From: Thermoplasmatota archaeon
GTDB taxonomy: Archaea; Thermoplasmatota; Penumbrarchaeia; Penumbrarchaeales; Penumbrarchaeaceae
Reading direction: 5' to 3'
NCBI GenBank assembly: GCA_029762535.1
Contig: JARVGK010000025.1
Span: forward strand, 1-44,621
DNA length: 44,621 nucleotides
Shown here: one piece after another, positions 38,056 to 43,364 of the stretch
How the letters are laid out: each line of letters starts with the position of its first letter
How positions within the stretch are numbered: position 1 is the first letter of the stretch
Position numbers and translations under genes: made by a program
The notes under the pieces: model-generated
What the model was told of the DNA's origin: nothing
The model's database searches: none
Seen by the model: the letters and a program-made list of their open reading frames with translations, nothing else

Positions 38056-40185
38056 TTACCCGCCGACGACCAGATAAACGGCCAGCACAGTTCCGATTAT
38101 CGCCTCGCCTATGTAGAACCCCGTCATTATCATATACGAGTCAAGGAGCTTGAAGGTCTTCTCGGCCTCTCCCCAGTTAAGGCGCTTGGCCCTGGGACCG
38201 AGCCATTTCTTCTCCCACAGGTCCCTTGCGAAGCCTCCGGTGACCAGCATGAGGGTGTACTGCAGGGGCAGGTACATCCCGAGGCCGAAGGCCGTACCCA
38301 TTCCCGTAAGAAGCTCCACGAATACGCCGATGAATATGCCCAGGCCGAAAAGCAGCATGCTTACCTGGCCTCCGGCCAGGATCTGCACGAACACTGCGAA
38401 GGCCGATGCCTGAGGCGCCTCGAGCGCCATCTCGCCGTTGGCGAGCCTCATGGAGAAGAAGGCCGCCGCCAACGCTGCGGCGGGGGTGCCGAAGATTATC
38501 GCCACGGACTCGCCTTTGATGAGGTGCATGGGCCTCGTTCCAGCATAGAGCCCCGCCTTGAAATCCCACATGATCTCTGAGGATAACGAGATGGCGCTGC
38601 CGAAGACCGTTGTCCCCACGAGGGCCATCAGTATGATCTGGCTCTTGCCGTGGGGGAATGGTATGAGCAATGCGATGAGGCTGAACGAGCCGAACAGCAG
38701 GAGCAGGGTCAGGAAGGACGTTCCCGACACCGGCGTGGTACCGATCTCCCCGGAGATCTTGACAGCGATCGCACCCAGGGCGAAGGTCAGGACGACGAGA
38801 AGCCCGGAGAATACGAATGATGCCAGAACAGGGAAGCCGCCGAAGAGCCAGAAGGCCAGCCCTATGGTCACGAACGCAGCGCCCATGACAATGGGTATAT
38901 GCTGGGTGGGCCACTCGTACCAGCCCATTCCCGGCACCCACTCCTTCTTCTGACCTCCCTTGGTCTTCATGACGTCCTGAAAGACGGTCTTGAAAACGGG
39001 CAGCATCTTGAAGAGGGCTGTCGTGCCCCCTCCCAGAATGGCGCCTATGGCTATGATCTTCGCTATACCCTGCGCAGCCCCGAAGGCCGGAGCAGGATAT
39101 GGGATGAACTCAGACAGAGGGCCGGGAGGGATCGGCAGGGCCCGGACCGACAGGAAGCCCGTCCCTCCATACTTCTCGAGGATCGGGATATAGATGGGCA
39201 CATCCAGAAGATAGACCATCGGCACGATCAAGAACCATGTGACGAAGGATCCGAAAGCGACGGTGAGCGATGCCCTCGATTTCATGAACCAACCGATGGC
39301 GAATCCGATCCCCGTGAACTCGTACGAGATATGCGTTAGGTTGGACCACTTGTAGGGCATGTGTATCCGGCCGTGGCTGTACCACTGCCCGAGGCCGATG
39401 GAGTTGATCACATAGGTGATGGGGGGGAGGTCCTTGAAGAACGACAAGGGGAAGTCTCTAAGGAAAGCGAAGGCGAACATCGCCAGGAACGAGGCCATCA
39501 CCTTCTTGATCGAGCTGCGGGCCTGTTTCACCCCGCCTTCGGATAGATGCCCCGCGATATCGAGGAGCTTCACGAAGGCCTGGAAACCCGGGGAGGGCAG
39601 AGGATCCTCCACCTGCCACAGCCTCCTGAATATGATGAAGTACATCATACCCATTAGCGATGCGAACAGGGATGCGACCATCGCCAGCGGTACGATGTTC
39701 GAGCTCTCGATGAGGGCGGGGGAAAGCAGGGGCTCACCGTCGGACATGACGTACTGGCTGGAGTAAGCCAGCAAGTATATGGCCGGGAAGGTGAAGACGA
39801 ATCCGGTCACTGTCCTGTCGGTGGCGGTAGCGGAACCCGAGGCGATGTTCACCTGGGACGGCTTCCACCTGAAGAGCATTCCTACCAGATAGGAGACATA
39901 GAACGCTCCTCCGGTCACGAGGCCGATCTTGAGGGCGATGTACTGAGATATCACCGTGAACGGAAGACCGACCACGATTATGACCAGGAGCAGCTTCCAC
40001 CAGCTGAAGGAGGAGACCCTGAAGCCCTCGGTCCTGTTCTTATGGTCGAGGTATTCCTCGAGCACCTCGGTGTTAAGGTTCGAATACACCTCGGTGTCGA
40101 AATAGTTCAGCGTGCCCTTCTCGATCTTCTCCAGGCCCTTGGCAGTTGGAGGCTGCCTGTAAACGGACCTGCGGACCTTGCCCAT
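38056..40185 (-). CDS. OPT/YSL-family oligopeptide transporter
   Basis: YIALKIG, GFVFTFPA, GEIGTTPVSG, DFKAGLYAGTRP, EAPQA, FGLGMYLP. Confidence 0.88.
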   Translation of the reverse strand: MGKVRRSVYRQPPTAKGLEKIEKGTLNYFDTEVYSNLNTEVLEEYLDHKNRTEGFRVSSFSWWKLLLVIIVVGLPFTVISQYIALKIGLVTGGAFYVSYLVGMLFRWKPSQVNIASGSATATDRTVTGFVFTFPAIYLLAYSSQYVMSDGEPLLSPALIESSNIVPLAMVASLFASLMGMMYFIIFRRLWQVEDPLPSPGFQAFVKLLDIAGHLSEGGVKQARSSIKKVMASFLAMFAFAFLRDFPLSFFKDLPPITYVINSIGLGQWYSHGRIHMPYKWSNLTHISYEFTGIGFAIGWFMKSRASLTVAFGSFVTWFLIVPMVYLLDVPIYIPILEKYGGTGFLSVRALPIPPGPLSEFIPYPAPAFGAAQGIAKIIAIGAILGGGTTALFKMLPVFKTVFQDVMKTKGGQKKEWVPGMGWYEWPTQHIPIVMGAAFVTIGLAFWLFGGFPVLASFVFSGLLVVLTFALGAIAVKISGEIGTTPVSGTSFLTLLLLFGSFSLIALLIPFPHGKSQIILMALVGTTVFGSAISLSSEIMWDFKAGLYAGTRPMHLIKGESVAIIFGTPAAALAAAFFSMRLANGEMALEAPQASAFAVFVQILAGGQVSMLLFGLGIFIGVFVELLTGMGTAFGLGMYLPLQYTLMLVTGGFARDLWEKKWLGPRAKRLNWGEAEKTFKLLDSYMIMTGFYIGEAIIGTVLAVYLVVGG

Positions 40186-40863
40186 TCAGCTGACCTCCGG
40201 GGCTCTACCTGCCTCGAGGGCCTTGTTCTCCATGATAGCCTTTATCCTCTTCCTCCGGAAGAAGTCCTCCCTCTCACGCTCCTGGAGCTGCATGGTTATG
40301 TACCTCTCGGTATTCCTAAGCCTGGGGATGAATATGTGCTCCAGGGCGTTGACCCTTCTCTTGGTCTTCTCTATCTCAACGGCGATCCGCTCCATGGCGG
40401 ATTCGACCTCGGCGAGCTTGAGAAGGGATCGTATCGCCCCCCTGTATGCGGTCATCGAGTCGTCCAGCGCCTGGGGGGTCGAGCCCAATGACCAGGGCTT
40501 GTCCTTATCCTCGGGATCCCTCCCCTCGATGGTGGGCACTCTCACCCCCATGATGTTGAGCATGGATATCCTCGGAGCGGGATATGGTTCTATCCCCAGT
40601 GTATACGATCTGATCGTCTCGTAACCGAGCACTGCCATGGCATTCTGGATATGGACCTGGGCTCCCTCGAACGAGGAGCGCACCTCGGACCTCAGCTCCT
40701 TCCTCCTTTTGATTATGTCGAAGAACTGCACCACCAGCGCGTCCCTCTTCTCGCCAAGCAATTTGTGTCCCTTCTCGGCAAGAATCCTCTTCCTCCGGGT
40801 GGATAGGAGCTCCATCCTGGTCGGGTTGATGCCCTCGATGACCTCGCCTGGCATTACCTTCAC
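40186..40863 (-). CDS. atpD: A/V-type ATP synthase subunit D
   Basis: NPTRMEL, GHKLL.EKRDAL, NIMGV.VP, IEKTKRRVNALE..IP, ERERE. Confidence 0.95.
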   Translation of the reverse strand: MKVMPGEVIEGINPTRMELLSTRRKRILAEKGHKLLGEKRDALVVQFFDIIKRRKELRSEVRSSFEGAQVHIQNAMAVLGYETIRSYTLGIEPYPAPRISMLNIMGVRVPTIEGRDPEDKDKPWSLGSTPQALDDSMTAYRGAIRSLLKLAEVESAMERIAVEIEKTKRRVNALEHIFIPRLRNTERYITMQLQEREREDFFRRKRIKAIMENKALEAGRAPEVS

Positions 40864-40921
40864 CGTTATATCGCTGCCCTCAATATCACATTTATTATTA
40901 TTATATGTCGGAGGAGAACGG

Positions 40922-42325
40922 TCATTGCTTCTTGATGTGCGACAATCCGGCGATGGCCCCGGGGTTGTTCTCGAAGTATTTCCTCAGCGGGTCCAGGATC
41001 GATATCAGCAGCTCCGAGACGGCTTTTTTTAGGTCCTGTGGATGGACCTCCTTGTTGACGAAGGCTGAACGAAGCTCCTCCATGGATGAGAAGGATACGT
41101 TGCCACCCCATTTCTCAGGCCGCTCTATCCTAAGCTGGCCCTTGAACGGGAAGACGATATGAGCGCATATGTCCATGACAGGGTTGTCAGGCACTCCCTC
41201 CGGGCACCAGGCCTTCTTCAGCTTCCTCCTGATATCATCGGGGGAGTCGTGGAGGAATATTCCTGAATCGGGATCGGACTTTGACATCTTCTCATCGGAT
41301 GCCTCCTCGGGATCCTCGTCGATCCCGAGATAATCCAGAAGCTCCGAGCGGGCGAGGTTCAGCGTCCTCTCGATGCCTTTTATCTCCATGGGTTCGGTTA
41401 CGGAATCCATGGCATTCGCATCCTTCTGAAGTATGTTGTATATCGGTGCCTTTCCCCCTACCCTTCTCCTCCCGGCGAGAAGGACCTCCAGAGCCTTGTG
41501 TCGTTTCTCCGGCGACATCGATGAGAGGCCGGTAATCAGGTCCCGCGTGTCCCCGCTTAGCCTTCCGTTCTTTATGAGGAGGGGGATATCCTCCTCCAGC
41601 CTCTTGGCGAGCGCATCGTGGTCCAGACCTCCGGATGATGTGCTGGCCATCTCCATCCTTCCGCTCTTGCTCAAGGATGATAGGAGCGGTGTGTGCAGGG
41701 CTATCGGTTTTTCCCGGCCGAGCTTCTCCGCCACATCCCTGGCGAGCATGTGGGCGTGCCTCTGGTCCGTCCCGCCGATGGCGAGGTCTATTCCCATGTC
41801 GAAGATGTCCGCCGCCTGCATTGAAGGGTATATGAACTTGGATGAGTCGGCGTCCGCCTCGTCCTCCTTCCTTCCCATGATGGTCATCGCTCTCCTGATC
41901 CTCGAAAGCGAGGCGGACTTGGCGACCCTCAGGACGGTCTCCCAGTACTGGGCGCGATCGGCCAGATCGCTGGCCCACATGAACTTTAACCTGCCGGAAT
42001 CGATCTCCGTCCCCAGGCCGTAGGCCCTGTAGCATTCCATGAAATACTTGCCGCAGGTCTTGATCCTCTCCATGTCGCCCCCATACTTGTCGTTGATGAA
42101 GGCGTGCCAGTCGGCAAGGAGGACTATCACCTCGAAATCAGCGTCCAGGAGCTGTTTGAGCTTTCGCGTTATTATAAGCCATCCTATGTGGACGAAGCCG
42201 GACGGCTCGTACCCCACGTATGCCCTGGGCCTCTCCTTGCGCTGGAGCAGTCCCCAGAGCTCCTGCTCCATGACGATCTCCTGGGCCCCTTCCGTGACCA
42301 GTTCCACCCTCTCCGTTATATCCAT
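40922..42325 (-). CDS. tyrS: Tyrosyl-tRNA synthetase (archaeal type) with large insertion
   Basis: YVGYEPSG..HIGW, LADWHA, YPSMQAADI, GGTDQR, KMSKS, HPQDLK. Confidence 0.95.
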   Translation of the reverse strand: MDITERVELVTEGAQEIVMEQELWGLLQRKERPRAYVGYEPSGFVHIGWLIITRKLKQLLDADFEVIVLLADWHAFINDKYGGDMERIKTCGKYFMECYRAYGLGTEIDSGRLKFMWASDLADRAQYWETVLRVAKSASLSRIRRAMTIMGRKEDEADADSSKFIYPSMQAADIFDMGIDLAIGGTDQRHAHMLARDVAEKLGREKPIALHTPLLSSLSKSGRMEMASTSSGGLDHDALAKRLEEDIPLLIKNGRLSGDTRDLITGLSSMSPEKRHKALEVLLAGRRRVGGKAPIYNILQKDANAMDSVTEPMEIKGIERTLNLARSELLDYLGIDEDPEEASDEKMSKSDPDSGIFLHDSPDDIRRKLKKAWCPEGVPDNPVMDICAHIVFPFKGQLRIERPEKWGGNVSFSSMEELRSAFVNKEVHPQDLKKAVSELLISILDPLRKYFENNPGAIAGLSHIKKQ

Positions 42326-42383
42326 GAGCAATATCACCGACCCTGACGCTAGGCTAATAAGGGAGGGCTACTTTAAATTGATT

Positions 42384-43364
42384 ATGGTCGCCTTCCCCGA
42401 GGGGGTGAATATTGGATTCCCCTTTGTGCGTTATCAGGACGGTTCCCTAACGGACGAGGCTTCGAGATCGCCATTTCACGTCCTCGGGCACAGCTGGGCG
42501 GGGGCCTCACCCGTTCTCGCTCTCAGGCCGTTGAGGGAGGAGGGCGGCCCTCTCTTCTACGAAGGAGAGGTACTTGAGTTGGAACTATCCTCATTCGGGA
42601 GGATCGATATGAGGGCCGGGAGGGAGGTGTTCTGCACCGGACGATGGGAGGGGGAGCATGTCCCATGCCCAGGGAGGGAACCATACGAGGGTTTCTCCAG
42701 ATGCCGGGAGTGTATGGCCCCCGAGATCCCCGATCCATCCTGCGTTTTCGAACCGCACTGCCACATGGGCACTTGCGGAGCATTCTTCTGCCAGGCCGAG
42801 CATGTTGTGTACCTGGCGATGTTCGGCAGGAGGATGAAGGTCGGATTGACCCAGGCCTCAAGGGTGATAGAGAGGGGAATGGAGCAGGGTGCTGATCTGA
42901 TGATGGTTTTGGCGAGGACGCAGGACCGCTACAGCGCCAGGGCGCTCGAGAACCTGATCTCGCGCAGGTACAGGATATCCCAGTTCTCCTCGGATGCCGT
43001 CCTGAAGGGGCTTGAGAGGCCGACGCCGATAGCTGAGGTCAAGAACCTGGCGCTGGCGTTCTTCGAGAGGGTCCGGAGGGAACAGATCGCGATATCGGAC
43101 CTGTTCCCCTCGAGAGGGACCTCCGTTGCCGCACTCCCAAGGGACCTGCCCTCGGAGCCACTTATCATGGGCCCATACCCGATCCCCGAAAGACTTGAAG
43201 CGGCCCCCAGGAGGATCCCCCCCGAGATCGTTCGAGGGGAGGTGGTGGGATTCAAGGGGAAATGGGGAGTGATCAGATCCAACGGATCCCTCGCGGCGTT
43301 CAAGACGGGGGATCTTGTCGGAAGGATCGCATACATGGACCCCTCCTCTCTCGGGAACGATTAA
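42384..43364 (+). CDS. DUF2797-like Cys-rich protein
   Basis: CTG..CP..C..C, C...C...C...C..HVVYLA, KVGLT, RGMEQGA, G.KG. Confidence 0.75.
   Translation: MVAFPEGVNIGFPFVRYQDGSLTDEASRSPFHVLGHSWAGASPVLALRPLREEGGPLFYEGEVLELELSSFGRIDMRAGREVFCTGRWEGEHVPCPGREPYEGFSRCRECMAPEIPDPSCVFEPHCHMGTCGAFFCQAEHVVYLAMFGRRMKVGLTQASRVIERGMEQGADLMMVLARTQDRYSARALENLISRRYRISQFSSDAVLKGLERPTPIAEVKNLALAFFERVRREQIAISDLFPSRGTSVAALPRDLPSEPLIMGPYPIPERLEAAPRRIPPEIVRGEVVGFKGKWGVIRSNGSLAAFKTGDLVGRIAYMDPSSLGND

Follow-up and report, generated by a model that had tools for sequence, protein, structure and literature searches.

The decoration of a conserved core with lineage-specific modules is a textbook trait of aminoacyl-tRNA synthetases. 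Among them, the class Ic enzymes, TyrRS and TrpRS, generally pass for compact. In TyrRS, the mobile KMSKS loop connects the catalytic domain to the anticodon-binding domain; it takes up open, semi-open and closed states during activation and gates the access of the tRNA CCA end to Tyr-AMP (PMC1934993). In bacterial leucyl-tRNA synthetase (LeuRS), the leucine-specific domain (LSD) occupies an equivalent position; there it assists in placing the KMSKS loop and modulates aminoacylation (PMC3643597). The LSD is the closest described parallel to the subject of this report, an insert in the TyrRS of an archaeal family within the Thermoplasmatota. In both enzymes a compact module interrupts the class I catalytic domain on the immediate N-terminal side of KMSKS, and the replacement of the LSD by a few residues in some LeuRSs has its parallel in the 2–7 residue loop of insert-less TyrRSs. 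The two cases also differ: LeuRS, a monomer, belongs to class Ia, and TyrRS, a dimer, to class Ic. In addition, the module in TyrRS exceeds the LSD in size, is predicted to be all-helical and is restricted to one archaeal family. No LeuRS chain was found among the fold and sequence matches of the insert, although absence from a match list does not exclude homology to the LSD.

An otherwise canonical archaeal TyrRS with an accessory module

The stretch of DNA analyzed here (the window; 44,621 nucleotides) contains tyrS on the minus strand, and all positions given below for parts of this gene refer to that strand. The gene lies within an open frame of 471 amino acids (40922..42337), and the coding sequence itself (40922..42325, stop codon included) specifies 467 amino acids. 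The ATG at 42325, which is M5 of the open frame, is the likely start because homologs begin there (MD...). Residue numbers throughout are those of the 471-amino-acid frame, in which the start codon is M5. The product passed the curated cut-off of the NCBIfam model for tyrosine--tRNA ligase (NF006330; 416.7 bits against a cut-off of 220) as well as that of PF00579 in Pfam (161.9 bits). Each of the two profiles matched it in two pieces, however, skipping residues ~229–349. The same gap appeared with the best solved relative, A. pernix TyrRS (2cya), which aligned to residues 4–236 and 346–461 with only five residues of its own between them.

Outside this gap the enzyme has the expected architecture. 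The Rossmann-fold catalytic part (residues 5–228; 41654..42325) includes the HIGW (HIGH-type) motif and the residues of the tyrosine pocket, the KMSKS signature (residues 350–354; 41276..41290) is intact and invariant, and the C-terminal helical anticodon-binding domain (residues 355–471; 40925..41275) could be delimited from the 2cya alignment and the predicted model. HIGW, KMSKS and the tyrosine-pocket residues Y40, Q174, D177 and Q192 were invariant columns in a 63-sequence alignment. The full-length AlphaFold2 model (mean pLDDT 85) is predicted to contain both the Rossmann catalytic domain and the helical C-terminal domain, and it superposed on 2cya over 326 residues with a Z score of 41.8, an rmsd of 1.7 Å and 47% identity. 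The enzyme shares signature motifs, tyrosine pocket and C-terminal domain with both A. pernix TyrRS and M. jannaschii TyrRS (1j1u). Since at most ~341 of the 471 residues aligned with any of the solved TyrRS structures, none of them has a counterpart of residues 229–349. Only one TyrRS was found in the genome, which is 93% complete, and the TrpRS gene is the only other PF00579 gene there; tyrS therefore appears to be the sole TyrRS gene, and from this we infer that the insert-bearing enzyme is active in tyrosylation. These results show an otherwise canonical archaeal-type TyrRS that carries a lineage-specific accessory module.

The insert comprises residues 229–349 (121 amino acids; 41291..41653), as delimited by alignment and a translation check, and adjoins KMSKS (41276–41290) directly, without a gap. 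Its length in these comparisons is 118–122 residues, as against 2–7 residues at the same place in close insert-less Thermoplasmatota TyrRSs, whose total length is 340–357 residues. It begins with a Gly-rich entry linker (residues 229–238; 41624..41653; consensus EMxTGPTGG), in which pLDDT falls below 50 at residues 230–236. Four short helices follow (residues 239–289; 41471..41623) with a pLDDT of ~90 in the full-length model; their predicted limits are 240–249, 251–256, 262–272 and 276–288, and D239, H240, T264, R265, K278, R279 and E284 are conserved in this region. Next comes a basic loop of low pLDDT (residues 290–299; 41441..41470), which reads RRRVGGKAPI here and KRRVGGKTPI in the family consensus. 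This loop (consensus G-K-R-R-V-G-G-K) is the best conserved of the insert segments (conservation 0.83; mean charge +3.8). The acidic segment after it (residues 300–315; 41393..41440) is variable (conservation 0.46), with low pLDDT and in-frame indels among relatives. A long return helix (residues 316–337; 41327..41392) bears the motif LNxARRELFxYLG, in which A329, R330 and E332 are invariant, and an acidic, poorly conserved exit linker (residues 338–349; 41291..41326; pLDDT below 50 from residue 344) leads into KMSKS. In the AlphaFold2 prediction, a helical module of about five helices is thus held between two low-confidence linkers, which are predicted to be flexible. The whole module is acidic, with a mean net charge of –5.8. 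Because it is net acidic and has a single conserved basic loop, a general RNA-binding role is not obvious.

The initial annotation, made from the letters of the DNA, had described much of this anatomy. It reported an in-frame domain of ~115 amino acids before KMSKS, at 41295–41650, which alignment with Thermoplasmatota TyrRSs extended to 121 residues and the translation check refined to the limits given above. Its enzyme length of ~467 amino acids agrees with a start at the ATG at 42325, its expectation of only a short linker at this place in other archaeal TyrRSs agrees with the loops of the insert-less relatives, and the alpha-helical look that it noted agrees with the AlphaFold2 prediction. 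Its remark on host-like codons also holds, the GC content of the insert (55–60%) being like that of its flanks.

Codon-level comparisons indicate how the insert has evolved. For the four closest pairs among 12 family genes, dN/dS was 0.08–0.14 in the insert and 0.06–0.09 in the core. Mean pairwise nucleotide identity in the insert was 0.69, 0.78 and 0.43 at the first, second and third codon positions, respectively, and every length difference among 32 inserts was in frame. The insert nevertheless evolves ~1.8 times faster than the core (mean pN of 0.28 versus 0.15). Judged by this selection at the codon level and by the in-frame indels, the insert is shown to be translated and under purifying selection.

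Distribution, origin and relatives of the insert

We searched 401 Thermoplasmatota genomes with a profile of 32 inserts. The insert was present in 22 of the 24 sampled genomes of the window's family and in none of the 377 genomes from ~50 other Thermoplasmatota families, the second family of the same order included. The two family genomes without a match have a completeness of 76% and 65%, and in them tyrS is either absent or incompletely assembled. Wherever it occurred in these genomes, the insert was single-copy and inside tyrS, and it was neither lost nor shortened in any sampled family member. One of the carriers is a Guaymas MAG named ex4484_6; EX4484-6 is listed as an undescribed class of Thermoplasmatota in a 2025 survey, which does not mention TyrRS (PMC12220078).

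In a TyrRS tree computed without the insert columns, the family formed one clade (ultrafast bootstrap 100, SH-aLRT 99) whose sister was the other family of the same order (98/97), congruent with the taxonomy, and a larger tree of 63 TyrRS sequences recovered the same single family clade. The congruence of tree and taxonomy indicates vertical inheritance of the gene and one gain of the insert. The insert is therefore a synapomorphy of the whole family and not peculiar to the genome of the window, and the sequence comparisons fit a single gain on the family stem, by expansion of the short pre-KMSKS loop.

Gene order around tyrS is also conserved in the family (window 38056–43364), with genes for an OPT transporter, atpD and tyrS and a divergent DUF2797 gene. 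Here atpD (A-type ATPase subunit D; 40186–40863) is directly downstream of tyrS on the same strand, and the DUF2797 gene, at about 42.4–43.4 kb, is divergent from tyrS. Another family genome has, besides a full tyrS, a 157-amino-acid open frame (G009:C59:12363-12776) that matches only residues 319–458 and so covers the end of the insert, KMSKS and the C-terminal domain; this frame may be a pseudogene, or else a partial copy of the gene.

Searches for relatives of the module outside the family were uniformly negative. An exhaustive HMM search with the 32 inserts against 1.84 billion representatives returned four real matches, all of them TyrRSs or TyrRS fragments of the same clade; a further match, P0124, was rejected as spurious, since it is a low-complexity repeat protein. 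NCBIfam gave no match to the insert up to an E value of 1, and Pfam gave no recurring family for the 32 inserts up to an E value of 10, a search in which known appended helical domains of synthetases, such as WHEP-TRS, also went unmatched. A profile search of the PDB with the insert yielded nothing below an E value of 0.37. Fold searches were made with a model of the insert alone (pLDDT 69). Foldseek found no match in the PDB at E ≤ 0.001, the best Z score of VIA-align 2 against 48,161 chains was 4.0, well under the level that is meaningful for helical proteins, and matches in the ESM Atlas had TM scores of 0.5 or less. A feature search of the ESM Atlas returned scores of 0.85 or less, which are to be taken as leads only. 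Internal duplication of TyrRS was rejected as a source of the insert (hhalign against insert-less TyrRS, probability 0.1%), as was kinship with either of two other synthetase inserts described below, that of P0039 and that of TrpRS (probability below 2%). The literature and profile libraries searched contain no description of the insert.

These results support the view that the module is a new appended domain without detectable sequence or fold relatives. Idiosyncratic insertions in synthetases as such are known; what is new here is a domain without relatives in an unusual place, the catalytic loop of a class Ic synthetase. The initial annotation had likewise proposed a new appended domain, and this proposal stands in so far as the module is selected, has a predicted fold and lacks relatives; the Foldseek and AlphaFold analyses that it suggested gave just such a predicted helical module with no fold relative in the PDB. 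One qualification is the family-wide distribution of the domain. The annotation had itself named, as a finding that would count against its reading, that the insert be a known and widespread feature of its TyrRS clade: widespread it is (22/24), but no description of it was found where we searched.

The site of the insert has received additional sequence in other TyrRSs as well. P0039 (L031:1798-2100; ENA contig k141_324822) has an orphan, AT-rich insert of ~98 amino acids at exactly the same pre-KMSKS site, where it replaces four residues (PIEA). The core of this TyrRS is 88% identical to that of the insert-less P0042 and nests in a different clade from the window's family. The two inserts are alike in that both are in frame, similar in size and placed at the same site of an essential gene. 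The P0039 insert, however, is sporadic, compositionally foreign (GC 29–35% versus 47–52% in its flanks) and unrelated in sequence, whereas that of the window's family is host-like, fixed and under strong purifying selection. In two other Thermoplasmatota families, the pre-KMSKS loop has 19 (L071, genome G033) and 24 (L068, genome G038) residues instead of 2–7. As far as these sequences tell, the pre-KMSKS loop of TyrRS demonstrably tolerates insertions, and the family insert is a fixed and selected example of a recurrent phenomenon.

The TrpRS gene of the same genome (C30:15106-16416) also encodes an extra block of ~83 residues relative to A. pernix TrpRS (3a04). This block (residues 224–306; L028:1990-2238, G000:C30) lies between the region of the DQDPH helix and the strand before KMSSS. 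In contrast to the TyrRS insert, this block had contiguous matches in nearly all of 40 sampled Thermoplasmatota relatives, across classes. It matched no Pfam family and showed no similarity to the TyrRS insert.

Candidate functions of the module

By analogy with the LSD of LeuRS, we tentatively propose that the module tunes the closure of the KMSKS loop and the handling of the tRNA 3′ end, a proposal to which we give somewhat less than an even chance. A short, flexible, acidic linker would tie the module to the N-side of the mobile KMSKS loop, so that the two would move together; in this way the module could tune the closure of the KMSKS loop, and its basic loop might contact the phosphate backbone of the acceptor end of tRNA-Tyr. 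Consistent with this proposal, the insert is translated, selected and located directly before an intact KMSKS, and its basic loop is its best conserved segment. Several observations argue against it. The module is acidic overall, unlike a typical RNA-binding appendage, and the searches made revealed no similarity in fold or sequence to the LSD or to any RNA-binding domain. The strong constraint, moreover, could also arise if an entrenched insert simply had to fold in a way that leaves the enzyme undisturbed. Docking prediction, in which the insert was offered as a partner to two pieces of the core, gave a score of 0.00, which weighs neither for nor against the proposal.

Nor does the substrate of the enzyme point to such a contact. 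The tRNA-Tyr (GUA) gene of this genome (G000:C91:71252-71364) has the archaeal identity set, C1-G72 and A73, and a 38-nt intron at 37/38. The tRNA-Tyr of the family is canonical and of normal length, and ARAGORN places introns of 29–40 nt at 37/38. Position 9 is the exception, as it is G in all 20 family tRNA-Tyr genes recovered and A in all eight outgroup genes (L033-L062). Comparison of the family with the outgroups revealed no new identity element besides G9, and G9, one correlated change that falls on the branch of the insert gain, is hence not statistically informative. With a tRNA-Tyr that is canonical but for G9, no new contact is indicated.

A broader formulation is that the module is a hitherto unseen fold that gives TyrRS a new contact of its KMSKS loop, either with the acceptor or core of tRNA-Tyr, whose position 9 differs between family and outgroups, or with a family-specific partner; this, too, is possible but doubtful.

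Alternatively, the module might have no dedicated function. A foreign sequence could have been inserted in frame and fixed in the ancestor of the family by constructive neutral evolution, to be conserved thereafter only for compact folding that spares the KMSKS loop. We regard this as rather unlikely, though several findings accord with it: the site is tolerant, having accepted the unrelated P0039 insert and the 19- and 24-residue loops of the two other families, the module lacks relatives and any recognizable functional motif, and it evolves faster than the core by the factor given above. Set against these points, dN/dS between close pairs is nearly as low in the insert as in the catalytic core, and no loss or shortening of the insert was seen in any sampled member of the family. 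Many of the conserved residues are charged (D239, R265, K278, R279, E284, K/R290, R291, R330 and E332), and the best conserved segment is a loop predicted to be disordered; a constraint on folding alone would not be expected to leave such a pattern.

Another possible role is that of a protein-docking or regulatory platform. The module would then recruit a further protein, be it a second synthetase, elongation factor 1-alpha or some regulator, or it would cover the active site as an auto-inhibitory lid responsive to a cellular signal. In other synthetases, protein contacts are commonly made by appended helical domains, as in multi-synthetase complexes, and the net acidic surface, conserved charged residues and flexible tether predicted for this module would suit such a role. 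No candidate partner was identified, however; the conserved neighbors, namely the DUF2797 gene, atpD and the OPT transporter gene, give no functional link, and the Pfam and PDB profile searches recognized no known interaction domain in the insert. We consider a docking or regulatory platform improbable.

It is highly improbable that the insert is absent from the mature enzyme as an intein, a spliced archaeal mRNA intron or an assembly chimera. Conserved catalytic motifs are classic homing sites of inteins, which speaks for an intein, but the insert is predicted to be all-helical rather than to have the HINT beta fold, no intein family appeared among the Pfam matches to the 32 inserts, and, as the initial annotation had pointed out, intein termini are lacking: the insert ends in ...ASDE without a terminal HN, and the next residue is K350, not C, S or T. 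An intron is countered by the low dN/dS, by third codon positions that are far less conserved than the first and second, and by the in-frame indels. A chimera, which the initial annotation had named as a possible refutation, is opposed by the occurrence of the same insert in at least 22 of the genomes searched and in 14 named MAG records that stem from separate studies, the latter found in a related-locus search with a 15-row insert alignment. With no intein features, constraint at the codon level and recurrence across genomes and studies, all three readings are effectively excluded.

Implications for synthetase evolution and for the family

Whatever its function, a 115-residue module without relatives has persisted under strong selection across a family, attached to the catalytic element that is most mobile in an essential enzyme. 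The family is thereby a natural experiment in the load that the KMSKS loop can bear and, when the sporadic foreign inserts at this site are considered too, in the passage from captured sequence to fixed domain. If the module does provide a new contact, the loop before KMSKS in TyrRS would be a recurrent site of domain capture, and this would be the first instance for which fixation and selection have been shown. Genetic-code expansion relies mainly on archaeal TyrRS/tRNA pairs, and an insertion-tolerant site near the active site could therefore be practically useful. For this uncultured family, the module further provides a clean molecular marker. Should the new contact prove real, a whole archaeal family would charge its tRNA-Tyr by an altered catalytic cycle that depends on the module.
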